Part shown: positions 16,282 through 55,672 of the stretch, one piece after another
Layout of the letters: each line of letters begins with the position of its first letter
Position numbering within the stretch: the stretch's first letter is position 1
From: Pseudomonadales bacterium
Lineage (GTDB): Bacteria; Pseudomonadota; Gammaproteobacteria; Pseudomonadales; Azotimanducaceae
Reading direction: 5' to 3'
NCBI GenBank assembly: GCA_965208815.1
Contig: OZ242357.1
Span: 1,447,710-1,511,709, forward strand
DNA length: 64,000 nucleotides
The notes under the pieces: generated by a model
What the model was told of the DNA's origin: nothing
Seen by the model: only the letters and a program-made list of their open reading frames with translations
Databases searched by the model: none
Made by a program: the position numbers and the translations under genes

Positions 16282-16357
16282 TCCACCTTAGCTCAGTTGG
16301 TAGAGCAGCTGACTGTTAATCAGCGGGTCGCTGGTTCGAGCCCAGCAGGTGGAGCCA
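16282..16357 (+). tRNA. tRNA-Asn (anticodon GTT) with encoded CCA
   Basis: Hand-folded cloverleaf: acceptor TCCACCT/AGGTGGA, D-arm GCTC..GAGC, anticodon stem GCTGA/TCAGC with loop CTGTTAA, T-arm GCTGG-TTCGAGC-CCAGC, then GCCA. Confidence 0.95.
16312..16357 (+). repeat. attL: 46-bp core (tRNA-Asn from the anticodon loop to CCA)
   Basis: Exact 46/46 match to 37822-37867, with mismatches immediately outside both ends. Confidence 0.85.
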
Positions 16358-16400
16358 GTTTTTACTGGGACTTCAGAAATTAGCATTCTCGCCAAATCAC

Positions 16401-16430
16401 TCTTGTCTCCAGTTTGTCACCAAATCGACA
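16401..16430 (+). promoter_or_regulatory. Tandem TTGTC(T/A)CC motifs (11-bp spacing); candidate integrase arm-type site near attL
   Basis: tcttgtctccagtttgtcaccaaatcgaca matches 36271-36300 at 24 of 30 positions, in the same orientation. Confidence 0.35.
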
Positions 16431-16972
16431 GCAATTCGCCAAACGCGCCTAATTCGAGGAACCTGCAAGAATGACGAAATTTCAACACTGAATTTCAAGA
16501 TCTGATCAATACAAAGGCAGGTCAATCTGCACAGGAATGTCATCCAGTCTTGCCACAGACCAAACTATAGGGGGCACACGCTTCAATGCGGTTCGAAACT
16601 CCTGTCTGTTCTCTACATCCATTGCGTTGATCACATGAGCGGTACTAACTCATGGAATTCTGGTTTTTTGGTTTCGAACATAGCTGTTTTGAACTAGTAA
16701 ATTTGGATTTTCTGGACGGGATTGCAATCCCACCGTGCAACTATAGTTGGCGCGCTTACTTGCACCGTTGCAACCTGCAAACGGCGCGGGCAGATTGCGG
16801 TCAGTAAAGATCTTAGTCGCGAGGCCTAGTCTTGGGAGATACGCTGTGGAAAACCTTTGCCCTGTCCGTGTCGCCAGTCCAAGGCCGGCAAACAGGGGCA
16901 TCTCGAAGCCGCGGACTGCGTTGTGCTTAATGGACTGTTTTTTTGCAAGCCCTTGGAAATTTTTTTGAAGAA

Positions 16973-18214
16973 CTATGGCGACTCTGGTGTAGCTGGCTGC
17001 ACACTGGACCAAATGGTCAGTCGTAGTTCGTTGTCGAATAGTTCATATATGGGTCGTCTTCCTGAATGCGTTTCGCTTGCTACAAGTATGTGACGAACTC
17101 CCTCGCCTCGCGATTCCAAAAAGGCGTTTCCAGTACGACGACTACTCATAGCCGAAAGAAATCGAACTAGGAGTTGATTTCTCGTGAAGACTCGATAGGG
17201 CATTGTGTTAACGGTGATGGTGTTTGGTAGGGCTCCGGGGCTATAAATCTCTAGTCGATCAGAGAAGAGGAAGAGGCGTATTTTCGCACCTGACATTGAA
17301 TAGTCACGATGAGCAACTGCGTTGACAATGGCTTCGTGTATCGCGTCCAGATCAAATTGCGGGTAATCCTTACGTCCCCGGTGCTTTAGCGCTGGCCTGA
17401 GCATGAAGCGGTCCACAAATGCAGAAGCATCATCGATCTGAGCATCTACAGTGCCATTGATTTCTTGACTGTGAACCAATTCATTCGAGTACAGACGATG
17501 TCCTCGGTATACCGCAGCCGAGATGAGCGCAGATTCCATGTACTTTTGTGGCTGCTTGCCAAACGCAAGAAGTCCTGAGACTGTTGGTCGTACTAGGTTA
17601 CTCTCATCTTGAGCCAACACTCGAGTATTCAACAACAGGTCGGTCCAAGGAATTGCCCCTCGTCCGTAACTGAAGAACGACTTCATGAACTCGTGGTCGA
17701 GATCGTCAGCGGTCGCGCCAGGCACCCATTGTTCGTCGAAAACGAATGCGCGACCGCGCTCTTGAAATAATCGCGCTAACATCGCACCAGCCAGCACCTG
17801 CTTGGAGTCTCCCACTCTTTCGTAGTGCAGACCATTGCGAGTACTGTGGACGTACAGACCCCGAGGAATTTCGACAAGCATTACAAGTTCGTTTGTGCCA
17901 GTCTTGCTAGTTAGTTTTTCTCGCCTGACAAGCGGGGTGATAGGTGGATCGCAGTTGTTTCTTGCAATGTTTACGATCCACTGTTCTACATGTGAAGCAT
18001 GTTCAAAGGGGATTCCTTGCACAATTCCAGAATTGTCCACCCCGAGAAACAGAACGCCTCCACTGGAGTTTGCGAACGCCACCATTTCACCAGCCATCGG
18101 ATCGGGTTTTGGAGAGCTTACGCGACCCTTCTCAAACTCGAGAGTCTTGAATTCCGCACGTGCATCCTCACGGTTCTCAAGTTGCCTTAGGACTTCTTCC
18201 TGCGTGTCAAACAT
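16973..18214 (-). CDS. AlbA_2 (Schlafen-like) + HATPase_c_4-like domain protein ('RecG-like' putative DNA-binding/ATP-binding protein)
   Basis: N-terminal ...EFK...VAFANSSGGVLFLGVDNSGIVQGI (AlbA_2 signature). The C-terminal half has HEAIVNAVAHRDYS...LEIYSPGALP (HATPase_c_4-like). Confidence 0.65.
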   Translation of the reverse strand: MFDTQEEVLRQLENREDARAEFKTLEFEKGRVSSPKPDPMAGEMVAFANSSGGVLFLGVDNSGIVQGIPFEHASHVEQWIVNIARNNCDPPITPLVRREKLTSKTGTNELVMLVEIPRGLYVHSTRNGLHYERVGDSKQVLAGAMLARLFQERGRAFVFDEQWVPGATADDLDHEFMKSFFSYGRGAIPWTDLLLNTRVLAQDESNLVRPTVSGLLAFGKQPQKYMESALISAAVYRGHRLYSNELVHSQEINGTVDAQIDDASAFVDRFMLRPALKHRGRKDYPQFDLDAIHEAIVNAVAHRDYSMSGAKIRLFLFSDRLEIYSPGALPNTITVNTMPYRVFTRNQLLVRFLSAMSSRRTGNAFLESRGEGVRHILVASETHSGRRPIYELFDNELRLTIWSSVQPATPESP

Positions 18215-18225
18215 TGTGCAACAAG

Positions 18226-21186
18226 CTAATAGCCGTACCGCTCTCTCCTAAGGCGGAACGCTTCCTCGCTCCCCTCCATAATTTCACTTACCAATTGCTT
18301 CATTTGTATCTTGTCAATGCTGCCAGATTCACGCACCGTTCCAAGGCGGTTTTCAGTTGCAAGAGCAACAATGAGCTCGGCATCTCCGTTTACTGGAATG
18401 TTCGCATTGTGAGTTGCAATGATCACCTGGCGAGAAAACTTTTGTCGTCTAAGCAAGTCTACAACTACGTTGTACACATAGCGATTGTCCAAGTCGTCTT
18501 CGGGTTGATCTATTACGATTGGGTGATCACCTGCAGATAGCAATAGACTCAAGATGGCAGTGCTCTTTTCCCCGACGGACCCAGCCTCTATAGACTTGAA
18601 CGAGCCATCCGGCGAACGCACTTTGGCAAGAACCAAGTCTTCGGGCAAAAACCTCTCCATTTCCTCAATATGAACTCGGTCTTTGCGAGTAAGTGCAGTG
18701 AAGATTGTTCTCGTTAATCTTCCTTCACCTGTAAGAAGATGTGCTAAGTTGGAATTGGATTGTTGAAGATTCGATTCAGTGCCAGCGAGTTCAATATCCT
18801 TGCGCATAGCACGGGACAGCGCAACTATCCGGTCGGGTACGTTTCCGTCTTGGCCAAAGACGTAGTCGCACAAAACGTTCCAATCCTGCTCTCGCAATCC
18901 TGATCCTCCGAACCATTGATCGCGCCGATCTTCGAAATCACTTCGGTCTGCGAACGGGCGAATTTCCAATCGAACATCTGCATCCCTTTCATCCAAGACT
19001 TGCGCCAGCTGTTTCCGGATATTGGCTCGCTCGTCGTGGCAATTTGCTAATCGTCGTTGCGTCTCAAGTACCTTCGCTTCGATTGACTCAATCTCCTTGT
19101 CTATACTTTGTAAGGAGTCAACTTCTCGCTCCAGTTGGGCTTTTCGTTGGAGCAATCGCTCGTGCTGGGCAAGCTCTATGTTGCGAGAGGACATTTCCTC
19201 GACAAGTGCAACATAGGCCGATCGTGTTTTGTCGTAGCCGCTTTGCCATGACGTCGACTGTTCGTTAGCTATTTCTTTCTCCAGGTCACGCAGTAAGCCA
19301 GCTTGCTCACGCAACGCAACAGCGGTTGCTTTAAAGGTGGAACCAATACGATCGGCAACGCGTACTAGCCAAGACTCTGTGGATGCAGTTGATTTGGGAG
19401 CTTTCGACTCCTTTTCCTCTTCCTCTATAGACATTGCTTCTTCTTCTATACTTGACGCAACGTTCTCGAGGCTTGTTCGCTGCTGGACTAACCAATTCCT
19501 TTGACGTTCAAACGTCTCGTAGTCCGCAAGCACTACCTCTCGCCCTTCACTTTTCAGGAAATCAATTTGATCGCTTACCGTGCGGAGATTGGTGACGACG
19601 GTTGGGATTGCATGACTCTTTTCGGTAAGACGTGTTCGAACGTTTTGCAAACGCTCAAGTTCCACAGTCAGCTTCTTTCTTTCGTCGTCGATAGCACTCA
19701 ATTCTGCCGGGTCGATTAGTGCATCCAACTCTGCTCGTTGAGCAGTAGGATTGCGAGCTATTTCTGCAATTTGCCGTTGGGAGAGAATTCTTGGTGCTAT
19801 TAGGCTACGCGGGTCCAGTAATACTATTTGGTGACTATCTCCATTCGTTTCCAGCGCAACGGTAAAGCCATGTGCATTTCGGGATATTCTGTAGTGCTTG
19901 TCGGCCACAACGAGATCGACAGATATCGTGTGATCGGGCAGCAACGTGCCCTTTGTGTCACCGAAATCACGATTGGCTTTCTCGCTAAGAACAGATACAA
20001 CAGCACTTCGTGAAGTTGTAGAGGAATCCCCAGGCAAGTCTTCGTATCGCGCTCGGTCCAAAACGTATCGCAAGTACTCGAGAATTGTCGACTTCCCGCT
20101 GCCGCGTCCACCAATGAGAGTAGTCAAGCACTGATTGAATGGGATGCTGGCTTCATTGTAGAAGTCTGTCCTTTGTACGATCAAACGTTCGATGCGGGGA
20201 TAGCTGCAACTAGGAGGTCCTTCCTCCATTCGCCTAAGTCGGGATTGAGGATCGAGCAGCGCTAGCCGGATGCCCTCAACATCTGGCACGGCCATTTTCA
20301 TCCAAGTAAATTTGCGACCTACAGTCTTGTAGTTGTGAGGGTCCGAACACTGTATCAACGGCCAGTGCTTCCCCGATCGAATTTGGTCCTTTTGAATATC
20401 CGTCAGTGTGTCCCAATCGTCAAACCTGCGTTGAGCAATCCATCGACACAACAGATCCTGAAACGCGGGAGGCAGATCTTCAAACTGTCGATTCGTTTGA
20501 AACCCGTGCCAATCCCTGCGACTTATGATTTGCTCGCGCAAGTGTCCCTTCATTTCGTCCCACAGCGACGTCGCATCTCCTAGATTGAACGTCGCTCCCA
20601 GAAGCTCATTAGCCAATCCTTTGCCACTATCAGCATGTGCGGGTATGACGAGGAATTTCATCCTTCGTTGCCCGTTTTGGGGCTGACAATAGGCATACAG
20701 TCGATCTAGAAAACCTAGAACTGATCGTCCTGTTGAGAGTGGGACACCGGAGTTGGGATCAAATCGATCACTTGCCCCAAAGACGTGGTTGATTGCATTA
20801 TCAATGTGGTTGGCATCTGTGCTAGCTTCAAATATGACGAGAATGTGGATCGGTCTTTCTCCTCCCACTGAGAACTCCACTCCAGGCAATATCACAGGCG
20901 TTGAGCGCTCATCAACACATCCAAAATATGGAGACAGGAAGCGATAGCCGTCGACACTGTTATGGTCTGTCAAGGCGATTACGTCCATTCCTTCACCATC
21001 GGCTGCCTCTCGACATGCTTGTATTACGCGTTCTGCAATCGCCTCTAAGCGAAGTGGGTCGGAGTCTCGAAATGACTGAATGGCCGCTTTGAGGTCTTCA
21101 CCGAATTTTTTCTCGGCGTCAAAAGGTGTATGCACATGCAAGTCACACCGCAACCATCGGGCTCCAAAATCAAACATCTGAACCAT
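18226..21186 (-). CDS. PHP-domain phosphoesterase fused to a Rad50/SbcC/SMC-like ABC ATPase with a long coiled coil
   Basis: 986 aa. N-terminal CDLHVHTP and ALTDHNS (PHP). Walker A GGRGSGKST, then several hundred E/R/Q/L-rich residues. Signature-like SVGEKSTAIL, Walker B IVIDQPEDDLD and ATHN follow. Confidence 0.7.
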   Translation of the reverse strand: MVQMFDFGARWLRCDLHVHTPFDAEKKFGEDLKAAIQSFRDSDPLRLEAIAERVIQACREAADGEGMDVIALTDHNSVDGYRFLSPYFGCVDERSTPVILPGVEFSVGGERPIHILVIFEASTDANHIDNAINHVFGASDRFDPNSGVPLSTGRSVLGFLDRLYAYCQPQNGQRRMKFLVIPAHADSGKGLANELLGATFNLGDATSLWDEMKGHLREQIISRRDWHGFQTNRQFEDLPPAFQDLLCRWIAQRRFDDWDTLTDIQKDQIRSGKHWPLIQCSDPHNYKTVGRKFTWMKMAVPDVEGIRLALLDPQSRLRRMEEGPPSCSYPRIERLIVQRTDFYNEASIPFNQCLTTLIGGRGSGKSTILEYLRYVLDRARYEDLPGDSSTTSRSAVVSVLSEKANRDFGDTKGTLLPDHTISVDLVVADKHYRISRNAHGFTVALETNGDSHQIVLLDPRSLIAPRILSQRQIAEIARNPTAQRAELDALIDPAELSAIDDERKKLTVELERLQNVRTRLTEKSHAIPTVVTNLRTVSDQIDFLKSEGREVVLADYETFERQRNWLVQQRTSLENVASSIEEEAMSIEEEEKESKAPKSTASTESWLVRVADRIGSTFKATAVALREQAGLLRDLEKEIANEQSTSWQSGYDKTRSAYVALVEEMSSRNIELAQHERLLQRKAQLEREVDSLQSIDKEIESIEAKVLETQRRLANCHDERANIRKQLAQVLDERDADVRLEIRPFADRSDFEDRRDQWFGGSGLREQDWNVLCDYVFGQDGNVPDRIVALSRAMRKDIELAGTESNLQQSNSNLAHLLTGEGRLTRTIFTALTRKDRVHIEEMERFLPEDLVLAKVRSPDGSFKSIEAGSVGEKSTAILSLLLSAGDHPIVIDQPEDDLDNRYVYNVVVDLLRRQKFSRQVIIATHNANIPVNGDAELIVALATENRLGTVRESGSIDKIQMKQLVSEIMEGSEEAFRLRRERYGY

Positions 21187-22063
21187 TGCTGTCTAAATTA
21201 CCCGGACCGTTAGGACGATTGACTTCGTTCGTTTCAGCAAACGACGCGCTTCTTGGAATTGGTGTTGCGAAGGGTACAAACTTGGCAACTGGAATGAAAG
21301 GAACTGTTAGTGAATGGAACCCAACAATAAAGTAGCATTTTAGCCTATGGATTGAGCATCTCAAGACACCACAAACTGCAAAGTTCGGCACGTGAGTACT
21401 TGTTCAAAAACAATGCATAGAGATTCGTCTCTAGCTTGGAGCTAATTCCCATTTTGAGCTCCACGAGAACCCGACAAGAACTGAACGGCACCAACAAGCG
21501 TGGGCATCCGCTACGGACAATGCTGAACGAGAGCGCACTCTGTCTGCTGCACGTGCGAGATGGATTCTACTGGCAGAGAGCGCTAAAGAGGGCGCATTGC
21601 AGCACTTTCATCGCATAGTTGCCAAACCCCCGAAGACAGTAATGAAGGAAACCAGATGCACCGGTAACATTCAATGGCGGGACTGAAACTAGGCACATCA
21701 TCAAGCTCCATCGAAAGAACGATCCAGGTACTTCACAATCTGGATGCCACTCAAGTTGTAGAAAGTTGTGTACTGTAGCCGGGGAATCAGCTTGGTTTCT
21801 AAAAACCATTAGGCCAATGGCTTGTAATTGGCTCGTTAATAGAACAAACAAAAAAAACGATGATCTGGAGGTGATAGGCGACGGCGAGCCAAGGTGGCTC
21901 TCAGGAAACTGGAAAACGCAATTTAGGGACGTTGACTTGGATAGACCTACACAACGAGGTTTTTCTGCAACGATTGTTTCCCTCCAATTGAGATGTTAAA
22001 ACAACGGGCAGACCAACCATATCCTAAAATTTGGCTCAATCGCATAAACCGAACACGCAACAA

Positions 22064-22954
22064 ATGTCTAGAGCGCTAAATCTGATGTCTGTTTTTCGTG
22101 ATAAGGCGGCAGAACTGCAGCATGCACGAACTCAATCAGCTCTAATTCACGGGACATCAGACATACGAGCAGCAGGAAACCGAGTAGAAGACGCGTTCCG
22201 TGACTTTCTCAAGAGCGTTCTTTCTCCTCGTTACTACGTTACACACGGCCACCTTATTGATGACAGCGGGCGAACGAGTCCACAATTGGATGTGATAATC
22301 GCTGACCAGTTTAATTTGACCTCGGTTTTGACAGGCAGTGATGGAACACAATATATACCTGCAACGTCTGCATTTGCAATTGGCGAGGTCAAATCAACCT
22401 ACAACAATTCCAAGAATCACTTCAAAGAGTTTACCGACAAGATCTCATTGATCCACGAAGAGTTATCGCGACCGCTAGTTTTAAATACGGTATTTACACT
22501 TTCGAATGATACAGAACTTCATCATGCAATATTGGGAAGTTCTTTTAAATATTTGAATTATTTGTATTCTTTCCTATTTTGTATTGATTCTGGTGATTTT
22601 CAATTCGAGAAATTGAGCCCTATTCTTACAAGTTCGGAACCTCAATACTTGCCTAATGTCTCTGTGTTTCTAAGTGGAGAAAGTTCTGGTATTTTGGCGT
22701 ACGCAAAAAGCAACTCAAACGGCATTAGCTATCATAAGTACCCATGCGAAGTACAGAATCAAGGGTATAGGTGGTGCTTTATACGAGGACACGACATTGA
22801 CGAAGGATCGCGTGAAGGTGTTCATCTTGCTAATCTTTATGCACAAATATATGATCATCTCGCTGGTTCCCACCTTGAACGTACTAAGGTCTACGACTAC
22901 CTTCGAGAAATGGTATATCGTGGTTTCTCTAAGTCTTCGATTAGATGGATTTAG
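22064..22954 (+). CDS. Orphan PD-(D/E)xK-like nuclease-fold protein (DUF6602-like, tentative)
   Basis: ATG at 22064. SPQLDVIIAD ... AIGEVKS fits a D...(E)xK nuclease core. The gene is visibly AT-richer than its neighbours. Confidence 0.45.
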   Translation: MSRALNLMSVFRDKAAELQHARTQSALIHGTSDIRAAGNRVEDAFRDFLKSVLSPRYYVTHGHLIDDSGRTSPQLDVIIADQFNLTSVLTGSDGTQYIPATSAFAIGEVKSTYNNSKNHFKEFTDKISLIHEELSRPLVLNTVFTLSNDTELHHAILGSSFKYLNYLYSFLFCIDSGDFQFEKLSPILTSSEPQYLPNVSVFLSGESSGILAYAKSNSNGISYHKYPCEVQNQGYRWCFIRGHDIDEGSREGVHLANLYAQIYDHLAGSHLERTKVYDYLREMVYRGFSKSSIRWI

Positions 22955-24324
22955 GGAGACTATACTCCAACTAGAACCGAATTGAATGCCCTAGAATTTT
23001 GCCGAGACTCGCAAAGCGTTTCCGACGCGCTAGAATACTTTGTCTTGTCTACGCGCTCGAAGCCCGATTTCCTTATATTTTTAGATCGAGGCGGAACTCG
23101 GATGATCGCTCTCCTCAGAGCTACATACCGGCGATCCCGCATTTGACCAGATGTAGGAAACGCTTCACGATGTATACGACATGCCCCAAGATGAGTTCTG
23201 AGCAGTTCCGCGTTAGTTCCATGTCGCTGCGCTCATGAATTTTCATTTGTTGTTGATCGCGGCGACGAGACGCTTCGCGCGGGCGCGGGACCGGATCCTA
23301 GCTATCGAACAGTGGATCGCCTCACGCATTTCTAGCATGCCTGCTCGCTTCTTCGCCAAAAACGCGGAACCAGATACAGGCGTAATAGGATGAGAGTTTC
23401 GGACTAATCGAGTATGAGTCGAGCCAACAATTCATTTAACACGGTTTAGTGCGATAGCAACAACGGGGCAATCCAAAACTGCGCGCACAATGTGGAAGTG
23501 TTTCCGTGCGAACTCCTCAACAGGCCGACCAATTGGCAGAAGTCGCCACAGGTTAGTGGGCTGTGCACAATGGCTAAAGGAGGATACACACGGGTAAGGC
23601 AACCAACGCCTCTGCATTCCCCAAAATCGATCCTGGGACGCTCAAAAGAAACTGTGCGTTTACTATCACAAGACGGCGAAAGGGAATGGAACCAAATCGA
23701 TCATGGTCTCGGTGGCCCGAGCGCTGGCAGGCTACTTGTGGGACAGTGGACGCAACTCCATGGACCAACTGCAATTATCGTGCACGCGAGCAGCGTGACT
23801 GCAACCGCAACTTAGCCCGATACTGAACCGATCTCGTACACGAGCGACATGAATGCTACCTGGGAACACTCGAATACGCTATGCGGACTGCTCGAACGAG
23901 GAGCGATCCTCGCTGGTAGACTGAGAATAGCCTTGTTAAGCTGTAGCATTCTGTAGTGGCAAACCTACGCATGACAGAGTCCCCATGGTTTATTTCTTCA
24001 TTCAGGGAGCCCTTCGACAAGGAATCGAAATTGGCTAGTGATGTTCTTTACTCCATTGAATCCCTGCGAGCAGTCAAAAAATGAGAGCGAATTTTCTTTC
24101 GATAACAAGAACAGAAGGTATCCGTGAACACCATTGTAAGAGCGCTCCGGTTGGTGCTAAGAAAAATCAAGAAGATACCATGCTCGATATCTTGAAGCCA
24201 GCCATATCATTTAACTTGCCACAAGCCGATAGGTATGTGCCTGAAGGTGCGTGCACAAGACCTTCGAAGAGTGAAAAAGCATCTAGATACATTAAGCTCG
24301 GGTTAAAGCAGGACGTTTGATTAA

Positions 24325-27120
24325 GTGCTCTCCTGGAACGAGATCAGACTCAGAGCCGCATCATTCGCGAAAAAATGGAAGGATGCCAAGTACGAGAAAG
24401 GAGAGACACAGAGTTTTTACAACGATTTCTTCGAGGTGTTTGGTGTCCAACGACGAAGTGTAGCTCGGTATGAGCAGCATGTAGCTAAGCTGAATAATAC
24501 ATCTGGCTACATAGACCTGTTTTGGCCCGGTCGATTGCTTGTCGAGCAAAAGAGCGCAGGCCGCAATCTCAAGAAAGCTTACGGACAGGCAGGAAAATAC
24601 TTCGACGCTCTCAGCGAGGACGAACGTCCGAGGTTCATCCTAGTCAGCGACTTTCAGACCTTCATTCTCCACGATCTCGATGAACGTCAGGAAACAGAAT
24701 TTGCCCTGGTTGACCTGCCACGGAACGTCGAGGCGTTTGGTTTCGTAATAGGTGTCGCACGTCGCGAATTTCGCGACCAAGACCCTGCGAACATCAAGGC
24801 TGCTGAATTGGTAGGGCGACTTCATGATTCATTGGCCGCTACAGGCTACAAGGGGCATGACCTAGCACGGCTTTTGGTGCGCATTGCGTTCTGTCTGTTT
24901 GCTGACGACACTGGGATATTTGATCCCCGCGACATATTCCTTGACTTCATAGAACAGCGAACGAGCGTAGACGGTGCTGATTTAGGTCCATGGCTAATCC
25001 AGTTGTTTCAAGTGCTTGACACACCAGTGGAGGAACGATTGGCAACCTTGGACGACGCACTTGCTCAATTTCCCTATATCAACGGAATGTTGTTTGCTGG
25101 TCCCCTACGAATACCCGCATTTGACAGCCAATTGCGTAATGCATTGCTGGATGCGTGTAAGTTTGACTGGTCAGACATTTCTCCTGCGATCTTTGGGGCT
25201 CTCTTTCAATCGGTTATGGACCCTGAGCAACGTCGTGCACAAGGAGCACACTACACGACTGAAAAGAATATCCTCAAAGTTATCGAGCCACTGTTCATGG
25301 ACGATCTTCGAGCCGATTTTCAACGACTAAAGGCACGTAAAGATAATAGACGCCGGACCGACCTTCAAGCGTTTCAGAAAAGGCTTGGCGACTTACGATT
25401 CTTCGATCCTGCTTGTGGTTGCGGCAACTTTCTCGTTATTGCATATCGTGAATTGCGACTTCTCGAACTGGACGTCATTAGGGAGATGCGCGGAGCTGGA
25501 CAAGTGGAAATATGGGACGTCTCTTCACTGTCTCAGGTCAATGTAAATCAGTTCTTTGGAATCGAAATTAACGAGTTTCCTGTTCGAATAGCGGAAACGG
25601 CTCTTTGGATGATGGATCACATCATGAACAACCGATTGAGCTTCGAATTTGGGCATACCTATTCGCGCATTCCGCTCGAATCCTCTCCAAGCATTGTGTA
25701 CGGAGATGCTTTGGAGATGGATTGGAAAAACGTGCTATCGCCAGGGAGTTGCTCGTTTGTACTTGGAAATCCTCCATTCGCAGGTTCTAAATTTCAATCC
25801 ACGAGCCAGCGAGCGCAGGTTCGTCGCATTGCCGCACTTGGAGGTAGTGGAGGCTCATTAGACTTCGTGAGCGCATGGTTCATCAAGGCAGGTGAATATG
25901 TCCAGGAAAGCAATTCTCGCATTGGATTCGTTGCTACCAACTCGATCACTCAAGGGGAGCAAGTCGCACAACTTTGGCCAATTCTCTTCGACCGCTATGG
26001 GTTGGAATTGACATTTGCGCATCGTACGTTTGCATGGGGATCGGATGCACGCGGCAAGGCTCATGTCCACGTAGTAGTCCTAGGATTGGACCGGCGGGAA
26101 AATGCGCGTTCTTCAACCCGCCTATTCACATATCCCGACATAAATGGCGAACCGAATCAAAGCCAACACAAGAAGCTATCTCCCTACCTAGCTGACTCAA
26201 GTGGAGTAGCTGACTCACATCTGACCGTGCGCGAAGAAAGTAAGCCCATAAATCGGATGCGAAGGCTTCTATTCGGTACCCAGCCCCTCGAAGATGGAAA
26301 TCTCACCTTTTCGACGGCCGAAAAAGCAGCGTTCACAATACAAGAGCCGCTCTCTGCCCCATTCTTCCGACCGTTCGTCGGGGCACGAGAGCTACTGCAA
26401 GGAAAAGAACGTTGGATTCTTCACACAGAGAACATTAATCCTGCAGTCCTCCGCAAAATGCCACTAGTTCGAGACCGAGTACGAGCTGTTCGGGCATTTC
26501 GTGCGAAAAGCACGCGTGCAATCACAAAGCGACTCGCACAATTTCCGACAAAATATGGGGTTTCTGTTGTGCCTGGCAAGCCCTTTCTAACAATTCCAAG
26601 GGTAAGTTCAGAGAGGCGTGACTACACTCCATATGGCTGGCTCGAGCCACCTGCAATTCCTAGTGAAGCCACACTGTGTTTACTCGATGCAACTCTAATT
26701 GAATTTGCACTGCTTACATCCGCGATGCATATGGCTTGGTTGCGTCATATTGGTGGACGCTTAAAGAGTGACTACCGTTATTCCATAGGCCTGGTTTACA
26801 ACACCTTCCCAACTCCTCCTGTATTTCCCGAAAATCAGGCACGATTGTCCAAACTTGAACCATTGGTGCGGGCGATTCTTGACGCACGTGCCTCACACGC
26901 CAGTGAGACGCTTGCCGAACTTTACGATCCGGATTTCATGCCAGCGGAACTAAGGAGAGCACATCAAGTTCTGGATCGCGCCGTAGATCGCCTTTACAGA
27001 TCTAAACGATTTGACTCCGAACGAGAGCGATTTGAACACCTGTTTGCCATGTACGAGAAAATGCGTAGACCACTAACAAATCCAACAGGGACTAAGCGAA
27101 AGCGACGCAAGCGAACTTAA
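24325..27120 (+). CDS. MmeI-family Type IIL restriction-modification enzyme (nuclease + N6-adenine MTase + TRD in one polypeptide)
   Basis: GTG start. The N-terminus LSWNEIRLRA...FFEVFGV...YIDLFWPGRLLVEQKS (D-x9-E-x-K) is colinear with MmeI as I remember it. FFDPACGCGNFLV is motif I and GNPPFAG is motif IV. 931 aa. Confidence 0.8.
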   Translation: MLSWNEIRLRAASFAKKWKDAKYEKGETQSFYNDFFEVFGVQRRSVARYEQHVAKLNNTSGYIDLFWPGRLLVEQKSAGRNLKKAYGQAGKYFDALSEDERPRFILVSDFQTFILHDLDERQETEFALVDLPRNVEAFGFVIGVARREFRDQDPANIKAAELVGRLHDSLAATGYKGHDLARLLVRIAFCLFADDTGIFDPRDIFLDFIEQRTSVDGADLGPWLIQLFQVLDTPVEERLATLDDALAQFPYINGMLFAGPLRIPAFDSQLRNALLDACKFDWSDISPAIFGALFQSVMDPEQRRAQGAHYTTEKNILKVIEPLFMDDLRADFQRLKARKDNRRRTDLQAFQKRLGDLRFFDPACGCGNFLVIAYRELRLLELDVIREMRGAGQVEIWDVSSLSQVNVNQFFGIEINEFPVRIAETALWMMDHIMNNRLSFEFGHTYSRIPLESSPSIVYGDALEMDWKNVLSPGSCSFVLGNPPFAGSKFQSTSQRAQVRRIAALGGSGGSLDFVSAWFIKAGEYVQESNSRIGFVATNSITQGEQVAQLWPILFDRYGLELTFAHRTFAWGSDARGKAHVHVVVLGLDRRENARSSTRLFTYPDINGEPNQSQHKKLSPYLADSSGVADSHLTVREESKPINRMRRLLFGTQPLEDGNLTFSTAEKAAFTIQEPLSAPFFRPFVGARELLQGKERWILHTENINPAVLRKMPLVRDRVRAVRAFRAKSTRAITKRLAQFPTKYGVSVVPGKPFLTIPRVSSERRDYTPYGWLEPPAIPSEATLCLLDATLIEFALLTSAMHMAWLRHIGGRLKSDYRYSIGLVYNTFPTPPVFPENQARLSKLEPLVRAILDARASHASETLAELYDPDFMPAELRRAHQVLDRAVDRLYRSKRFDSERERFEHLFAMYEKMRRPLTNPTGTKRKRRKRT

Positions 27121-27144
27121 CAAACTCTAGCTCCTAGGACGGCT

Positions 27145-29490
27145 ATGAAGAAACACTTTAGCAGTAACGAAGTTCCACTAGCGCAATTGCTCGATCAGTC
27201 AGCTACAGGAGTCCTACAGTTACCAGACTTCCAGAGAGGGTGGGTGTGGGACGACGATCACATTCGAAGTCTACTGGCTTCCATATCGCTCTCGTACCCA
27301 ATAGGGGCAGTGATGACTCTTCTAGTATCTCGAAATTCCGAAGTAAATTTCAAAGCGCGTGTACTTGAGGGTGTGAAAGCATCTTCGGTGCGTACGCCTC
27401 AAAGTCTTCTTTTGGATGGACAGCAAAGACTAACTTCCTTGTTTCAGGCACTTGTATCAATGGAACCTGTCGCTACGCGGGATGCTCGAGGACAAGAGAG
27501 AAGCCGGCACTACTACGCACACATTGGTATATGCATCAATCCGGAATCAGATAGGGAGGAAGAAGGAATTCTTAGTATTCCCTCCGATCGCATTGTTCGA
27601 CGAGACTTCGGCAGAAGAATTGAATTGGATCTGAGCACTCGAGAGCTTGAAGTTGCTGCAGAAATGTTTCCGCTAGGTATAGTGCTCGACAGTAGCAAGA
27701 CTATGGATTGGCAAATGGAGTATTTGCAGAATGGGCAAGGCGATCCCTCAGATCGCTTGGACAAGTGGAAAGACTTTCAGGAAGCAGTGATCAATCCCAT
27801 TGTTCAGTATCACGTACCAACAATTGAGCTCGATGTTTCAACGCCCAAGGAAGCAGTCTGTCAAGTATTCGAAAAAGTCAACACGGGTGGTGTGACGCTG
27901 ACAGTGTTTGAACTATTGACCGCAACATTCGCTGCCGAAAACTTCGAACTACGAAAGGACTGGGAAGATCGCCGAGCGCGTATGGCCCAGCACGATCTAC
28001 TAAAGGGTGTCGATGGAACCTCGTTCTTACAAATCATCACCCTTCTATCAACATACAAACGACGAAGACTGCAATTAGTGACTCAGTCTAAGGACGAAAG
28101 GATTTCAGCAGTGTCGTGTAAACGACGCGACGTACTTCAATTGTCGCTGCAAGATTATCGAGATTGGGCGGACGTCGCCGAACGAGGTCTCTTGCGCACG
28201 ATACCGTTTCTTCACAGCCAGAAGATCTTTCAATCAAAGGACATTCCCTACGCAACACAATTGTTGCCCCTTGGCGCCATCTTTGGATGGCTAAGCGTGG
28301 AAAACAAGCACGAATCATACGTTAACCAGCAAAAGCTAGGGCAGTGGTATTGGTGTGGCGTGCTTGGTGAGATGTATGGAGGGGCCTCAGAGACGCGCTT
28401 TGCAAACGATGTGGAGGACTGTATCGCCTGGGTTGAGAATCACGAAGAACAGCCACCTCGCACTGTGCGGACCGCACAATTTCAGGCCGACCGACTCCTT
28501 ACGCTTCGCACTCGAAACAGCGCAGCATACAAGGGACTTTATGCGCTACAAATGAAACAGGGCAGCCGAGATTTTAGGACTGGCCAATCAATTGACGTAC
28601 ACGCGTATATGGAGCACGCAATTGATATTCACCACATATTTCCACGGACTTGGTGCGATCAGCACGAAGTTAGACCTAGTATCGCTGACACTATCGTCAA
28701 CAAGACGGCACTTGACGCACACACGAATCGCCGAATTGGAGGCAATGCTCCCAGCATCTACCTGTCAAGAATCGAGGCGAATGATGGTATTGAACCGCAA
28801 GTTCTGGATGGATTTCTACGTTCGCACGACATCGACCCGTTAGCCTTACGTGGAGACCAGTTCAAGCAATTCTTCAATAGGCGATTTGAAAGCCAGTTAA
28901 GGCAGGTTGAACGGGCCATGGGAAAGCCGGTGAATCGAAGTCCTGAGCTCAAGGCAAGTCCATTCATAGAAAACGATGCTGAATTGGATGGAGATCTGCA
29001 AGCGCTAATTAATTCGGGAGAGTCAATTGTCCTCGAGTTTAAGTCGACAGCTCGGCGAAATCTTAGGACACATACAGTAGATTACGCCATCACATGGTCG
29101 ATTGTTAAGACAGTCGCGGCATTTCTTAATACGAATGGAGGAACACTTCTTGTAGGAGTCGATGACAACGGTCATCCTATTGGCATCGAAAAAGACTTCG
29201 ACCTTGTCAGAGGAAAGAACCGAGATGGTTGGGAATTGTGGCTGACGTCGGCAATTACAAATGCCCTTGGACAAGTGGCAGCAACAGACATTTCCACAGT
29301 CTATAGCTGCCTGAATGATGTCACTATTGCTCGGCTGGACGTCCGACCTAGTATAGATCCCGTCTTCGCTAAGAAATCAGACGAGAAACACCAGCGTTTC
29401 TTCGCTCGAATCAACAATTCGACACAGGAGCTCTCCGGGCAAGGAGCACTTGCGTATCAGCAAAAGCGATTTCCTAAGCGAGAGCTCTAG
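27145..29490 (+). CDS. GmrSD-family (DUF262 + DUF1524/His-Me) Type IV restriction-like nuclease fused to a C-terminal AlbA_2/Schlafen-like domain
   Basis: LPDFQRGWVWDDDHI and LLDGQQRLTSL (DUF262). DIHHIFP...NKTALDAHTNRRIG (DUF1524). C-terminal IVLEFKS...VAAFLNTNGGTLLVGVDDNGHPIGI (AlbA_2). Confidence 0.8.
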   Translation: MKKHFSSNEVPLAQLLDQSATGVLQLPDFQRGWVWDDDHIRSLLASISLSYPIGAVMTLLVSRNSEVNFKARVLEGVKASSVRTPQSLLLDGQQRLTSLFQALVSMEPVATRDARGQERSRHYYAHIGICINPESDREEEGILSIPSDRIVRRDFGRRIELDLSTRELEVAAEMFPLGIVLDSSKTMDWQMEYLQNGQGDPSDRLDKWKDFQEAVINPIVQYHVPTIELDVSTPKEAVCQVFEKVNTGGVTLTVFELLTATFAAENFELRKDWEDRRARMAQHDLLKGVDGTSFLQIITLLSTYKRRRLQLVTQSKDERISAVSCKRRDVLQLSLQDYRDWADVAERGLLRTIPFLHSQKIFQSKDIPYATQLLPLGAIFGWLSVENKHESYVNQQKLGQWYWCGVLGEMYGGASETRFANDVEDCIAWVENHEEQPPRTVRTAQFQADRLLTLRTRNSAAYKGLYALQMKQGSRDFRTGQSIDVHAYMEHAIDIHHIFPRTWCDQHEVRPSIADTIVNKTALDAHTNRRIGGNAPSIYLSRIEANDGIEPQVLDGFLRSHDIDPLALRGDQFKQFFNRRFESQLRQVERAMGKPVNRSPELKASPFIENDAELDGDLQALINSGESIVLEFKSTARRNLRTHTVDYAITWSIVKTVAAFLNTNGGTLLVGVDDNGHPIGIEKDFDLVRGKNRDGWELWLTSAITNALGQVAATDISTVYSCLNDVTIARLDVRPSIDPVFAKKSDEKHQRFFARINNSTQELSGQGALAYQQKRFPKREL

Positions 29491-30480
29491 AACGCTTGTT
29501 GCCAGATAGAGTGCTAATTTAAGCCTGAGTCTAATTTCCATAGGATTTCAGCTCGTTTCACGTTTTATGAGGTATGGGTTCCTGGGGGAGCCATTCGATT
29601 ACGCAACGTCTCATACTGACAGAACGTTTTCACCTACAAAGCCATTTATCCCATCCTGACGCGAGGCTTGGTGCAGTGACAGGACAAGCTTACTGCAATA
29701 GCAATTGGTGGTCTCACAACGTGGGCCTCTATACAATTGGTTGAAACCCCAGAATCAAGGATTATGAGATGCCGGGCCCACTGGAAGTAGACTATAGAGA
29801 CATTGAAAGGCTGAGTGCCGACAGATTGACTTGTCTCCTGAGCAAATTGCTCAGATGCGAGGCTACGAAAAACTCCATTCCTCAGAGTTCAATAGAAGTG
29901 GGAATGAACATTAGTGCTCCTGATGGAGGCATTGACGCTCGAATTGAATGGAAGGATATACCAATCAAAACGGATTTCCTACCATGCCAAAGCTGTGTAT
30001 TCCAAATTAAATCTGGCCGGGTTCAACCGAACGACATTAAGCTTGAACTTACAAACAAGGACACAATCAAGCCCCTAATTGATCGAGCGTTCCAATCGGA
30101 GTCTGCATACATCTTGTTCGTTGGTCAAGAGAGAAATGTCATGAATGCCGACAAGTTGAAGAATGCAATTCGAAATGTTCTTAAAAGCAACGGCAAGAGC
30201 TATGCAGATTCAGCATCGATCCACATATATGACGCTGAAAAAATCAGAAATTGGGTTAATTCTTTCCCGTCGGTAACCATGGACGTCTGCAACTGGAGTG
30301 GCAAGCCCGTCCCTACCGGATTGATGTCGTTGGACTCCTGGCAGCAGTTTAGTGATCACGCGGAAACCAACTTCGTAGTCGACGATCAGAGACGTCAAAT
30401 ATATACCTACTGTGTTGCTCAAAAATAGTGGGAATCAAAACGAGGTGTTTTAGTATAGATTCCCCTAGGAGCACACAATC

Positions 30481-30774
30481 ATGTCCAAACGAGTTGCCTT
30501 GACGGCGGAGGAGCGAGGAGAGCTGGTTCTTCGTCTGCTTCGGAAGGAAGCCACGGCATCGGATCTTGCCCGCGAGGCATCAATCTCCGAGCCCACGCTG
30601 TACCAGTGGCGCGACGCCTTTCTTCGCGCTGGATTCGCCGGCTTGAACGGACGTTCCGACCGCGACTCGGAGAGGCGACGGCACGCTCGGGAGCTGGCGC
30701 AGCGGGACCAGGTGATCGGCGAGATGACCGTGGCTCTGAAAGTGCTAAAAAAAAACTTGGGGGTCTCCGAGTGA
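30481..30774 (+). CDS. IS3 OrfA (HTH transposase subunit)
   Basis: 97 aa with an HTH (...ASDLAREASISEPTLYQWR...) and a leucine-zipper-like tail. Confidence 0.85.
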   Translation: MSKRVALTAEERGELVLRLLRKEATASDLAREASISEPTLYQWRDAFLRAGFAGLNGRSDRDSERRRHARELAQRDQVIGEMTVALKVLKKNLGVSE

Positions 30775-31748
30775 CGCAGGAGCTTCGCGATCGGGTTCGC
30801 CAAGAGATGGAGGCCTGGAACGGAAAGCTGCGTCTGACCCGTCTGCTGACCCATCTGGGAGTGTCGACGTCGACGTGGTACCGACTTCCGAAGGGAGACT
30901 CGGAACCTCGGGGACGACCTCGGGATCCCCTCGATCCCGTCCGCGTCGAGGCGGTTCGGGACCTCTGCCGGCGCTATCCTTTCTGGGGCTACAAGCGCAT
31001 CGCGGTGGTGGCCCGGAGAGACGTCGGCCCGGGCTATTCCGACCGTCTGACGTACCGCATCATGCGGGAGCTGAACCTGCTGCAGAAGCGGGCTCCCCGC
31101 CGTGCCGAGCTGCACCAGACGAGGCACCTGTTCGAGCTGCTTCCCTCGCGCCCCAACGATCTGTGGCAGATGGACGTGACCTACCTCCACCTGCCCCAGG
31201 GGCACTGGTGGTACGCGGTGACGGTGATCGACTACTACTCCCGGTACCTGCTGGCGTGCCATCTGACGCCGTTCCAGAACGCGGGCTCGGTGGCGGTCGC
31301 CCTGGATCTCGCCCGGGCCGAGGCGGAGCGCTTCCACGGTCCGCTGGATCGCGAGCCGACGCTGGTCACCGACAACGGCTCGTGCTTTCTGGCCCGCAAG
31401 TTCCAGAAGCACATCGAGGAGCGGTTCTCCCATGTGCGGATCCAGTATCGAACCCCGCAACAGCTGGGACTGCTGGAGCGGTTCCATTCGACGTTGAAGA
31501 AGGAGGAGGTGTACTGGCGCATGTACGACGGACCCAACCATGCCCGGCAGTGTCTCGAGGAGTTCCGCGATCGCTACAACCGGGTGCGGCCGCACTGGGC
31601 GCTCCGGCCCTCCGAGAAGGAGGATCCACTGACGCCCGCCGACGTCTACGAGGACGGCCTGGCGGTCGTCATACCGAAGTGGCAGAAATGGGCGAGGGCG
31701 GCGAAGAAAAAACTGGAGGAGGCAGCTATGGAACGGAAGGCCGCGTAG
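30606..31748 (+). CDS. IS3 OrfB (DDE/rve integrase-core), normally made as an OrfAB fusion by -1 frameshifting
   Basis: The frame is -1 relative to orfA. WQMDVTY...VIDYYSR...TDNGSCF...LKKEEVY are rve DDE motifs. The functional part starts near the A-run at 30747. Confidence 0.85.
   Translation: MARRLSSRWIRRLERTFRPRLGEATARSGAGAAGPGDRRDDRGSESAKKKLGGLRVTQELRDRVRQEMEAWNGKLRLTRLLTHLGVSTSTWYRLPKGDSEPRGRPRDPLDPVRVEAVRDLCRRYPFWGYKRIAVVARRDVGPGYSDRLTYRIMRELNLLQKRAPRRAELHQTRHLFELLPSRPNDLWQMDVTYLHLPQGHWWYAVTVIDYYSRYLLACHLTPFQNAGSVAVALDLARAEAERFHGPLDREPTLVTDNGSCFLARKFQKHIEERFSHVRIQYRTPQQLGLLERFHSTLKKEEVYWRMYDGPNHARQCLEEFRDRYNRVRPHWALRPSEKEDPLTPADVYEDGLAVVIPKWQKWARAAKKKLEEAAMERKAA
30747..30755 (+). promoter_or_regulatory. 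A9 slippery run; candidate -1 programmed ribosomal frameshift site
   Basis: Nine consecutive A at the orfA/orfB overlap. IS3-family members typically frameshift on A-rich heptamers. Confidence 0.6.
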
Positions 31749-34700: not shown

Positions 34701-35067
34701 AAAGTCGACTCCATGCTTGACGCTCTTCGAGCCAATTTGGATACGTTCTCTTGGAAGGGTTCTGCGATCAAGCACTATAAGCGAGAAATTTCAATTTTGA
34801 GAAAACTCGAGGAACACTCCGAGCTTGAAGTTCGCAATTGGGCTTTCGGGAGAATCGAAAGACTTAAGGAGCGAATCGAGTATGAAGAGATGATTGAACA
34901 AGAGCGAAGCATTGGTCTAATCGATCGCGGTTGACAGATTGCGATGTGTAGCGATGCTAGTTGGCTTGGGGAAAGACCTGCCGGATGGGTCTGGCAAAAC
35001 CGGTTGTGCGTTATCTCTTGCGTGACTAGACCAATTAGTTTCGTCGAACGAATGATTCAAGTCGACA

Positions 35068-36250
35068 CTACCAAGTGAGGCTATCGCGAAGTAGCAATAG
35101 ACTGGCTTTGTTGCCCATCATCGCTCTCCACATCATCGACGCCGCTTTCTCATGCGCTTCGCGCAGTGCTTCGGACGCTAGCCGCACGTAGCGATTACTC
35201 ATCGCGATCGTCGCGTGACCAAGGACGTCGCGTAGTATGAAGGCATTAGCACCTGTAGCCGCAAGGCTAGTCGATACGGAACGACGCAAATCGTGCAACT
35301 TCACATCTTCCAATTCCGCTTGACTAGTTGCCATGGCAAAGTACTTGCGAAGCGTTCGGTAGGTGATATGCGTGTTCTCATATGCGCCCACGAATACCCA
35401 TTCGTTGCCATTGACTCTTGGTAGTTGAGTCAATGTGTCGATGACTGGATCTACGAGGGGTATGATGCGTCTACCTGTTTTGGTTTTAGGCAACACCATC
35501 CGTGAGGACTCCAGATTCACGTTCTCCCACCGCAACCCCAAGACTTCACCTATGCGAAATCCTGTCATGGCAGCGAATCGATCGCTGCCACCGCAAACGG
35601 CTGATCTGCTTCCAACCCCGTAAGTTCATCGTTCAGTTTGGCCAATTCGGAACTCGACAAGACCCGATCGCGTGGTTCCTCTTTCGTACGTGTTATGCCT
35701 CGGCAGGGATTGGTACCCGGTTGCCTATATTCCCATGTTTCAGCAGGAGTGAAAATTCGGGAAAGGAAAGTGTGCGGTTCCTCATTGTGGGCGCAACAAT
35801 GCCTTCGACAAGCATCTCAATTTCGCGACGCCCAATTCGTTCAATTTTTCTGCCGCCAATCTTCGAACGAACAAAACGAGACTGTTTGAGGTATTCCATT
35901 TCCGTGCGTTCGCACATCCGATTTGCATCGATCCGTGAAGGTACGAACTCACCGAAAAACCGATCCAACATTTCATTGACAGTGGGAGCGAGTTTGGCTT
36001 CGAGTTTGCGCTCTAGGGGGTCGAGTTGGCCCGATCTGATATTGGCAAGTTCCGCACCGGCCATTTCGCGAGCCTTGCGCAATGAGATTTCTGAACATCG
36101 ACCTAGAATTGCTTGTCGTTTGCGTCCCCCAACCGTGTAGCGTAAGATGTAGCTCTTTTTGCGCGGAGTGATTTGCACACCCAATCCTTTGACGACGTTG
36201 TCCCATATCGTGAAGGTTGTTCTCTTGATTGGAAGTCTCGCATCACGCAC
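35068..36250 (-). pseudogene. int: P4-like tyrosine recombinase (integrase) with two frameshifts
   Basis: The N-terminal arm/DUF4102-like ORF is 35693-36250. The middle segment (TFLSRIFT...NPCRGITRTKEEPRDRVLSSSELAKLNDEL...FAVAAI) is readable only in another frame. The catalytic C-terminus, 35068-35568 (R...HDLRR...GH...Y), is in the third frame. Confidence 0.8.
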
Positions 36251-36270
36251 GATCCGCTAAGTTAGCAATT

Positions 36271-36300
36271 TTTTGTCACCTTTTTGTCACCAGAACGACA
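36271..36300 (+). promoter_or_regulatory. Tandem TTTTGTCACC motifs upstream of int; candidate arm-type site or int operator
   Basis: ttttgtcacc tttttgtcacc agaacgaca lies about 20 bp upstream of the int start. It is homologous to 16401-16430. Confidence 0.35.
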
Positions 36301-36469
36301 TAACAACATCAGCAAACGCAAGATTATTATTTCATTAATGGGCTTCTATAAATTAATCAAATCAATTATTTATGGTAAATATGAGCAAATGCAGGAATCT
36401 GTGTTGCTCAAAAATAGTGGGAATCAAAACGAGGTGTTTTAGTATAAATTCCCCTAGGAGCACACAATC

Positions 36470-37737: not shown

Positions 37738-37821
37738 CCATGAACCACGAAATTTCTCTACACCGAAAAATTCCCGCTATTTTTGATAGCAAGACAAATC
37801 ACACAAAATTCTCAAAAAACT

Positions 37822-37867
37822 ACTGTTAATCAGCGGGTCGCTGGTTCGAGCCCAGCAGGTGGAGCCA
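37822..37867 (+). repeat. attR: 46-bp duplicate of the tRNA-Asn 3' part
   Basis: Exact match to 16312-16357. There is no 5' half of a tRNA upstream, so this is not a second tRNA gene. Confidence 0.85.
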
Positions 37868-55667: not shown

Positions 55668-55672
55668 CCCAA

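Follow-up and report, generated by a model that had tools for sequence, protein, structure and literature searches.

What do a PHP phosphoesterase fused to a Rad50-like ATPase and a Schlafen-like protein accomplish side by side at the edge of a bacterial genomic island, and has such a combination been encountered before? The question is raised by two adjacent genes in a 64,000-nucleotide stretch of contig OZ242357.1 (assembly GCA_965208815.1, positions 1,447,710 to 1,511,709) from a Pseudomonadales bacterium of the Azotimanducaceae. This whole stretch is hereafter termed the window, and its first letter is position 1. A first-pass annotation, made from the letters alone, proposed the two genes as a candidate, unnamed defence system. 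We find that the locus is a divergent TrlF–TrlG pair and belongs to a module that is already known, though poorly understood in its mechanism. No new class of system is involved; the value of the locus lies in linking the literatures on the temperature restriction locus, Ppl and the Schlafen proteins, and in the nesting of related pairs within BREX (bacteriophage exclusion) and restriction–modification (RM) operons.

The description "unnamed" is incorrect. The genes do have names, TrlF and TrlG (NF045780; PMC7554251), whereas the pair is uncatalogued as a defence system in PADLOC-DB v2.0.0. The profile search that the first-pass annotation had suggested, as a check for an already named system, accordingly returned names for the genes and no PADLOC-DB v2.0.0 system for the pair.

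Architecture of the locus

The locus comprises two co-directional, ATG-initiated open reading frames (ORFs) on the (−) strand, encoding proteins of 986 aa (18226..21186) and 413 aa (16973..18214), and the 11-nt spacing originally reported agrees with the ORF coordinates. All of the motifs quoted from the larger protein (CDLHVHTP, ALTDHNS, GGRGSGKST, SVGEKSTAIL, IVIDQPEDDLD and ATHN) are present in the translation, and the original domain reading of both proteins is correct by Pfam. The parts of the locus are as follows; models were made with AlphaFold2 (AF2).

18226..21186, (−): trlF-like gene, 986 aa (ORF and translation); PHP phosphoesterase fused to a Rad50/SMC-type ABC ATPase
20227..21159, (−): PHP region of TrlF, about aa 10–320; conserved ligands in 70 homologues, weak Pfam PHP and CehA/McbA matches, AF2
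19747..20196, (−): TrlF ABC head N-lobe, aa 331–480; Walker A G359–T367, Q-loop Q470
18988..19710, (−): TrlF coiled-coil insertion, aa 493–733; hairpin apex near 594–604 (AF2), no CxxC
18229..18975, (−): TrlF ABC head C-lobe, aa 738–986; signature S870–G872, Walker B D893/E896, D-loop D898/D900, H-loop H926
18215..18225, (−): 11-nt spacer from trlF stop to trlG start (ORF listing)
16973..18214, (−): trlG-like gene, 413 aa; AlbA_2 and GHKL-like HATPase_c_4, with a helix–helix–strand–strand C-terminal end
17795..18148, (−): TrlG AlbA_2/Schlafen-like module, aa 23–140 (Pfam); the acidic motif begins at E16
17012..17290, (−): TrlG HATPase_c_4 module, aa 309–401 (Pfam, 1.2e-16)
21337..21364, (−): lone sigma-70-like site upstream of trlF, tentative; 10/12 matches

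Because both ORFs are long and have strong family matches, they are not chance reading frames. Their regulatory signals are far less distinct. No Shine-Dalgarno sequence is obvious in the 11-nt spacer, and nothing in the promoter and terminator scan exceeds the shuffle expectation; since sigma-70-like sites are in fact fewer than that expectation, the site at 21337..21364 is not evidence of function.

TrlF, a PHP domain fused to a split ABC ATPase

The larger protein passes the NCBIfam model NF045780, "TrlF family AAA-like ATPase," with 471.1 bits against a cutoff of 350, and the match is full length, extending over residues 8–985 and profile positions 2–944 of 944. Pfam reports SMC_N, AAA_21 (at 870–930), AAA_23, AAA_15 and a weak PHP match. 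Plasmid homologues of the gene bear the name TrlF from the Prokaryotic Genome Annotation Pipeline (PGAP), and the superfamily is large, with 1057 clusters at 50% identity (E ≤ 1e-30). A near-identity DNA search of E. coli genomes gave no match, and a phage collection yielded weak partial matches only.

Across an alignment of 70 TrlF homologues that spans a close and a distant clade, both clades retain the PHP ligands H17, H19, D74/H75, E104, H114, H184 and H284, and only the close clade retains D282; the ABC motifs (Walker A, Q-loop, signature, Walker B, D-loop and H-loop) show little or no variation. It is this conservation of PHP and ABC motifs that makes both enzymatic modules of TrlF look active, as judged from sequence.

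The AF2 model (mean predicted local distance difference test, pLDDT, 69) resolves the protein into a PHP region of alternating strands and helices (about 10–320, of low confidence over 184–234 and 273–324), an N-lobe (331–480), long helices (493–733) and a C-lobe (738–986). The helices at 493–524, 526–593, 605–667 and 672–733 pack into an antiparallel coiled coil, some 240 residues long, that contains no CxxC zinc hook; a single Cys lies in residues 490–735. The top Protein Data Bank (PDB) matches from Foldseek are the heads of SMC, JetC, MukB, Rad50 and LmuB, and a PDB profile search likewise matches TrlF 342–601 to SMC heads. PDB sequence and profile searches found SMC and Rad50 heads only, and no structure of Ppl or of TrlF.

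Nearest named relatives of TrlF

The first-pass annotation overlooked Ppl, a validated single-gene system of PHP and ATPase domains and the nearest named defence relative of gene 1. Ppl confers protection from the phages T7 and Bas63, the latter of which counters it with gp130 (PMC11482910). According to a 2026 review, the E. coli protein is a single-stranded DNA 3′–5′ exonuclease that nucleoside triphosphates inhibit by binding to both the PHP and the NTPase domain, and that becomes active when nucleotides are depleted and free 3′-OH ends are present (PMC12904381). Ppl (NF042955; PADLOC PDLC02208) and TrlF share an N-terminal PHP nuclease and a C-terminal ABC-type ATPase, with significant similarity over TrlF 273–983; the PADLOC match reaches 1.8e-43 (146.8 bits, mainly 558–983). 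The two nevertheless differ. TrlF scores 240.7 bits on the NCBIfam Ppl model, far under the cutoff of 1000 (Spaf_1101 is a further sub-threshold match), the PHP region aligns poorly, and Ppl acts alone, whereas the clade of the window protein has a conserved TrlG partner (25/30 close-clade loci).

Other systems with SMC-like ATPases are more remote. The earlier exclusion of Lamassu, Wadjet, Gabija, Septu and PARIS holds, in that PADLOC returns partial, head-domain matches only (LmuB at 2.7e-11, AriA, GajA and PtuA). Lamassu and Wadjet resemble TrlF in the SMC-type head and coiled coil (Foldseek JetC 1e-10, LmuB 2.6e-7) and in the concept of an SMC-like sensor plus nuclease, but the matches are confined to head and coiled coil, the TrlF effector is fused, and the partner is Schlafen-like/GHKL. 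As specific assignments both were rejected: for Lamassu, the LmuB matches are partial, TrlG matches no Lmu model, and the LmuA and LmuC partners are not present; for Wadjet, there is JetC fold similarity only, no PADLOC Jet match for either gene, and no JetA, JetB or JetD partner.

Mre11–Rad50/SbcCD shares with TrlF an ABC head split by an antiparallel coiled coil (Foldseek Rad50/SbcC E ~1e-6 to 1e-9) and an association with a metal-dependent nuclease on DNA ends. In TrlF, by contrast, the nuclease-type domain is a PHP in cis and not Mre11 in trans, the coiled coil is short and lacks CxxC, and the protein is not housekeeping. An identity as Rad50/SbcC was discarded, since the Rad50 hidden Markov models score 16–24 bits against cutoffs of 700–1087 and there is no zinc hook. 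A housekeeping DNA-repair complex, that is, a Mre11–Rad50/SbcCD analogue with its nuclease fused in cis, would accommodate the head fold and the attached nuclease-type domain, but it is rejected as extremely improbable in view of the missing hook, the island location and sporadic presence of the locus, Rad50 and SMC NCBIfam scores far under cutoff, and the lack of a near match in E. coli genomes.

A further protein of related construction is RloC, in which a Rad50-like ABC ATPase carries a coiled-coil insertion and is joined to an anticodon nuclease. RloC often resides in RM loci and is linked to type I RM; it differs from TrlF in the nuclease domain and its position, and it has a zinc hook.

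The temperature restriction locus of Photorhabdus

The names TrlF and TrlG lead to the "temperature restriction locus" (TRL), the trlR–trlF–trlG operon of Photorhabdus laumondii DJC (Hapeshi et al., 2020, Front Microbiol 2020;11:548800; PMC7554251). There, trlR encodes a small putative transcription factor of 79 aa at the operon head; trlF (PluDJC_RS01880; WP_011144772.1) was annotated as a histidinol phosphatase; and trlG (PluDJC_RS01875), mis-annotated as recG, encodes AlbA_2 (14–128) and HATPase_c_4 (298–365) domains (PMC7554251). Deletion of the operon lifts the restriction of growth at 36 °C, complementation brings it back, and the TRL promoter is induced on temperature upshift (PMC7554251). 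Spontaneous mutants that grow at 36 °C carry missense, stop or insertion sequence (IS) mutations in trlG; the many missense mutations fall in both domains, and loss of TrlG relieves the growth arrest (PMC7554251). In the searchable literature, no paper besides this one was found to mention TrlG.

The window pair is alike in several respects: the order trlF–trlG is the same, TrlG has the same architecture and a similar size, a RecG mis-annotation occurs in the source annotations here too, and gene 1 passes NF045780, a model named after Photorhabdus TrlF. It is distinguished by belonging to a separate clade, only 24–41% identical to the plasmid pairs compared, and by its location in a tRNA-Asn island, the Photorhabdus operon being situated between polA and dsbA. 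Taken together, we consider it very probable that the locus belongs to the TrlFG-family pairs.

Conservation of the pair

The first-pass annotation had suggested a synteny test across genomes, and the two families do prove to be conserved neighbours. In a homologue scan that took one genome per species (78 loci, labelled L001 and so on), the close clade (40–60% identity) is drawn from Acidobacteriota, Planctomycetota, Rhodothermales, Myxococcota, Bacillota and others, and TrlG directly follows TrlF in 25 of its 30 evaluable loci. TrlG is missing entirely beside TrlF in five loci (L009, L010, L012, L013 and L027), and L076 and L078 are decayed copies. Approached from the other gene, TrlF or a remnant of it lies immediately upstream in 22 of 35 TrlG-centred metagenome loci. 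Within the close clade, pairwise identities among the TrlF proteins track those among the TrlG proteins (r = 0.95 between the two matrices, reached in 0 of 2000 Mantel permutations), and TrlG is the more conserved partner.

The arrangement extends well beyond close relatives. The same trlF–trlG order is present at 24–41% identity on the IncC plasmid pNDM102337 and on a Burkholderia thailandensis plasmid, so that the pairing spans identities from 87–90% down to 24–41%. For homologous pairs with unambiguous start codons, the spacers measure roughly −1 to 18 nt; on the IncC plasmid the genes overlap by 19 nt. In every close homologue whose context was looked up, the pair is present and the neighbourhoods are otherwise unrelated; exact-sequence lookups of genomic context for both window proteins and for a further protein (P0001) returned no record. 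In L001 the two genes alone have been inserted among transporter and purine-metabolism genes, in L080 the pair adjoins GmrSD and an AAA_15/DUF3696 ATPase, and in L081 and L082 it sits inside an integrative and conjugative element. TrlF and TrlG are inherited together as a unit.

Decay products of the module also occur. In three loci only some 70 aa of TrlF survive ahead of a TrlG that looks intact (L121, 4772–4982; L122, 1463–1673; L095, 1732–1959), and an insertion of roughly 1.6 kb breaks up TrlG in L076 (8484–11292).

An alternative is that the two genes are independent single-gene modules that travel together, TrlF as a Ppl-like stand-alone exonuclease and TrlG as an autonomous Schlafen-like/GHKL protein. 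Such a reading draws on every case where one gene is found alone. TrlF-like genes appear solo on most of the 1087 plasmid records with matches (for example, beside a type II RM pair on pKPC2-EC14653); in the distant clade (24–28% identity, mostly Bacteroidota and Clostridia) TrlF is usually without TrlG; the five close-clade loci named above lack TrlG; 13 of the 35 metagenome loci lack TrlF, PglX–TrlG arrangements included; and Ppl itself works as a single gene. Against mere co-travel stand the fixed order and the tight or overlapping spacing, the correlated identity matrices, the retention of the pairing over the whole range of identities, and the insertion of a bare two-gene unit into unrelated neighbourhoods such as that of L001. 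We regard independent modules as distinctly unlikely.

Nesting in BREX and RM operons

Homologous pairs often sit inside BREX or type I RM operons. On pNDM102337 the order is HTH–hsdR–TrlF–TrlG–hsdS–AAA–hsdM (HTH, helix–turn–helix), and in L014 and L104 it is PglX–TrlF–TrlG–PglZ–BrxL. L010 has PglX–TrlF–PglZ–BrxL without TrlG; L111, L116 and L118 have TrlG after a PglX-like gene without TrlF; and in L003, L090, L091 and L094 a PglX-like gene follows the pair. The window pair does not hold such a BREX accessory position: no PglZ or BrxL was found in its island, where only a stand-alone MmeI-type IIG enzyme is near.

Further arrangements were seen in passing. L010 and L098 encode PglZ-like proteins that share 68% identity. 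Upstream of PglX–TrlG in L111 (1–2610) lies the PADLOC candidate PDC-S06, an AAA_13/SMC_N ABC ATPase (974 bits) and hence another coiled-coil ABC ATPase beside a TrlG. In the distant clade (L030–L071), at least 13 loci from Bacteroidota and others have a solo TrlF 3–9 nt downstream of a type III Res-like helicase/endonuclease gene (ResIII), as in L030 (5347–7992) and L038 (5071–8004), the latter also with an RE_endonuc domain. This coupling to Res suggests a different, RM-coupled use of TrlF.

TrlG and its putative active site

Pfam assigns SLFN_AlbA_2 to residues 23–140 of TrlG (1.5e-15) and HATPase_c_4 to 309–401. With the AF2 model (pLDDT 66), Foldseek finds 3lmm (DIP2311, a structural-genomics protein) over the full length at E 7e-15, then the GHKL catalytic domains of histidine kinases and PDK, and then, more weakly, Schlafen N-domains. 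The combination of AlbA_2 and HATPase_c_4 is very widespread and functionally uncharacterised in bacteria, with >5000 matches at E ≤ 1e-5 among the candidates scored. Invariant in the HATPase_c_4 module are E294, N298, H302-R303-D304-Y305 (window motif HEAIVNAVAHRDY), S325-P326-G327 and S368-R369-G370-E371.

In a profile-versus-PDB search, the invariant TrlG motif E16-x4-E21-F-K...AFAN..GG...GVDD aligns with the active-site region of SLFN12 and SLFN13, although the alignment is weak (E ~0.01). E16-x4-E21-F-K corresponds to E-x4-E-(F/I)-K of SLFN12 and SLFN13, and GVD60-N61 to GVD-D248 of SLFN13; E16 and E21, the former invariant across homologues and the latter nearly so, align with E205 and E210 of rat SLFN13, and column 61 with D248. 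E205 and E210 are essential for the RNase activity of rat SLFN13 (PMC5862951). The likeness of TrlG to the Schlafen RNases (SLFN11/12/13/14) lies in this weak alignment of its AlbA_2 module with their active-site region; TrlG differs in having a single lobe in place of a pseudo-dimeric core, N61 for Asp, and a GHKL-like fusion instead of a helicase. The substitution is encoded by codon 61 (18032–18034) and is shared with an 87%-identical protein (P0121), whereas D occupies this position in 25 of 27 homologues; the neighbouring D60 is kept. N61 may attenuate a Schlafen-type active site in the window protein.

A Hjc-like PD-(D/E)xK reading of TrlG 39–77 was set aside, being a short, weak match (E ~0.004–0.02) to the same GG..GV segment as the Schlafens. 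The exact window TrlG sequence is also filed in a 90%-identity cluster with 22 other members, peptides of 44–56 aa annotated HicB-like; this looks like a clustering artefact and not biology.

Could TrlG be a DNA-binding transcriptional regulator or sensor of trlF or of neighbouring defence genes, and not an effector? Source annotations call it a "predicted HTH transcriptional regulator" or a "putative DNA binding domain-containing protein," the C-terminal helix–helix–strand–strand end is compatible with a winged helix in the AF2 model, its neighbours are varied (PglX, type IIG enzymes), as is the behaviour of defence-island regulators, and N61 replaces the putative catalytic Asp. A position downstream of trlF with a tiny spacer would, however, be unusual for a regulator, and the Schlafen-type acidic motif is kept. 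In the Photorhabdus operon a small putative regulator, trlR, is encoded separately, and there the arrest is relieved by loss of TrlG, with many missense mutations in both domains (PMC7554251). A regulatory TrlG is, on balance, about as improbable as independent modules.

A probable conditional defence function and the evidence against it

What, then, does the pair do? We lean towards a function in defence: the pair is probably a conditional, growth-arresting module against phages or other mobile DNA, carried as island cargo. The defence genes that surround it in the window, and the BREX, RM, GmrSD and conjugative settings of its homologues, point in this direction, and Ppl defence and TRL growth arrest are functional precedents. 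The proposal of an "SMC-like DNA sensor or nuclease system" in the first-pass annotation remains reasonable. In the mechanism we envisage, TrlF would dimerise through its ATP-engaged heads and monitor DNA ends and nucleotide levels as an ATP-gated sensor/nuclease in the manner of Ppl, its PHP domain degrading DNA. TrlG would bind nucleic acid through the AlbA_2 module and the C-terminal end, use the GHKL-like pocket as a nucleotide switch, and deliver or license the growth-arrest output, possibly as a Schlafen-type nuclease. This specific division of labour is tentative and, on present evidence, somewhat doubtful. More speculative still, and unlikely as it stands, is a complete two-component immunity pathway in which TrlF detects DNA that is foreign or broken, as well as the depletion of nucleotides, and thereby switches on TrlG, a GHKL-switched Schlafen-type nuclease, to arrest growth. 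Were it true, TrlFG would give bacteria an equivalent of the pathway that in eukaryotes connects DNA damage to RNA cleavage of the SLFN11 type, and temperature restriction in Photorhabdus would be an autoimmune effect of a defence system taken up as an accessory by BREX and type I RM operons.

Several lines of evidence weigh against a defence role for the pair or against details of the scheme. The TrlFG pair is not a PADLOC-DB v2.0.0 system, and no phage or plasmid challenge of any TrlFG pair was found in the searchable literature. The TRL assignment rests on NF045780, the PGAP-annotated plasmid pairs and the published description; no trlR-like ORF was found upstream of trlF (21187–22030, (−) strand), a 94-aa ORF considered for that role having no Pfam hit and looking non-coding. 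The Photorhabdus mutants included zero mutations in the larger trlF, so that the part of TrlF in the output is unproven (PMC7554251); TrlF may be dispensable for toxicity, or it may restrain TrlG so that its loss is counter-selected. The AF2 models are of moderate confidence, with the AlbA_2 part of TrlG poorly modelled, and the window TrlG has N61 at the putative catalytic position. Each gene also occurs solo in the same BREX slot (TrlF in L010; TrlG in L111, L116 and L118), as do most plasmid and distant-clade TrlF genes in their own settings. Finally, the island that carries the pair is decaying, with an IS-split neighbour gene and a broken integrase.

To these must be added the one experimental phenotype, which is the foundation of a third alternative. 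As originally published, the system would be a physiological growth-control device that arrests growth on temperature or other stress and has no role against mobile DNA; the 36 °C restriction and the upshift-induced promoter are the only phenotype on record (PMC7554251). The distribution of the pair speaks otherwise, being patchy, horizontally mobile and spread over many phyla, with pairs in tRNA islands, conjugative elements, plasmids and BREX/RM operons, and TrlF is homologous to the defence exonuclease Ppl. Conditional self-toxicity is, in addition, common in defence systems. A pure growth-control device is therefore very unlikely in our estimation, clearly more so than either of the two alternatives above.

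The conditional defence reading matters beyond this locus. TrlF-like proteins are very common, the 1087 plasmid records including IncC and other conjugative plasmids from clinical isolates of Enterobacteriaceae, and a mechanism has been reported only for the solo relative Ppl. TRL genetics, Ppl biochemistry and BREX/RM nesting could be parts of one story, and their linkage would explain the Photorhabdus growth phenotype as defence-system autoimmunity. It also yields a directly testable hypothesis for the function of bacterial AlbA_2/HATPase_c_4 proteins.

The tRNA-Asn island and its surroundings

The pair was originally placed in the first cargo slot of a defence island, and this is borne out: it lies at the tRNA-proximal end of a 21.5-kb tRNA-Asn island with other defence genes. 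The order within the island is TrlFG, a DUF6602/NucC-like gene, a type IIG RM gene, a GmrSD_N–AlbA_2 gene, PD-Lambda-4_A, a broken integrase and a second IS copy. Its features are listed below.

16282..16357, (+): tRNA-Asn (GTT), island integration target (ARAGORN)
16312–16357, (+): left direct repeat, 3′ 46 nt of tRNA-Asn (repeat family D5)
16358..37867: tRNA-Asn genomic island, 21.5 kb, bounded by the 46-nt repeats
22031–22954, (+): DUF6602 protein; PADLOC matches to a CRISPR-associated PD-DExK model and to NucC-type effector nucleases
24325–27120, (+): MmeI-family type IIG RM enzyme (PADLOC, 1132 bits)
27145–29490, (+): GmrSD_N (DUF262) protein with C-terminal AlbA_2, 24 nt after the type IIG gene
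29769–30428 and 31794–34934: split PD-Lambda-4_A homologue; N-part = profile 5–203, C-part = 226–1273 of 1283
30410–31807: IS3-type element, 1398 bp, rve transposase; splits PD-Lambda-4_A, 3-bp CTA target duplication
35068–35568, (−), and 35693–36250, (−): broken tyrosine integrase; Phage_integrase ORF and Arm-DNA-bind_3 ORF, respectively
36399–37796: second IS copy, 99% identical; target duplication AAT, 25 nt from the right island repeat
37822..37867, (+): right direct repeat, partial tRNA-Asn 3′ end, far island border (repeat family D5)

The two 46-nt repeats are exact, sharing an exact 25-mer match where 0 are expected by chance, and the tRNA is intact at the left, with the broken integrase near the right repeat. 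Broken into two ORFs, the integrase is probably a pseudogene, and together with the IS-split PD-Lambda-4_A and the second IS it marks a decaying defence island.

Nearest to the pair, the DUF6602 gene and trlF point away from each other on either side of an 844-bp spacer; a cyclic-nucleotide synthase was not seen near this NucC-like gene. The type IIG and GmrSD_N–AlbA_2 genes may form an operon of their own, and the latter contributes a second Schlafen-like domain to the island.

Outside the island, a 1701-bp IS of high GC content with a DDE_Tnp_1_4 transposase is present in two 99%-identical copies (1214–2914 and 53968–55668), the first flanked by an 8-bp target duplication, TTCGAATG. Tandem paralogues of 706 and 651 aa are encoded at 55576–57696 and 58304–60259, and their DNA is 67–82% identical (repeat families D3 and D4).

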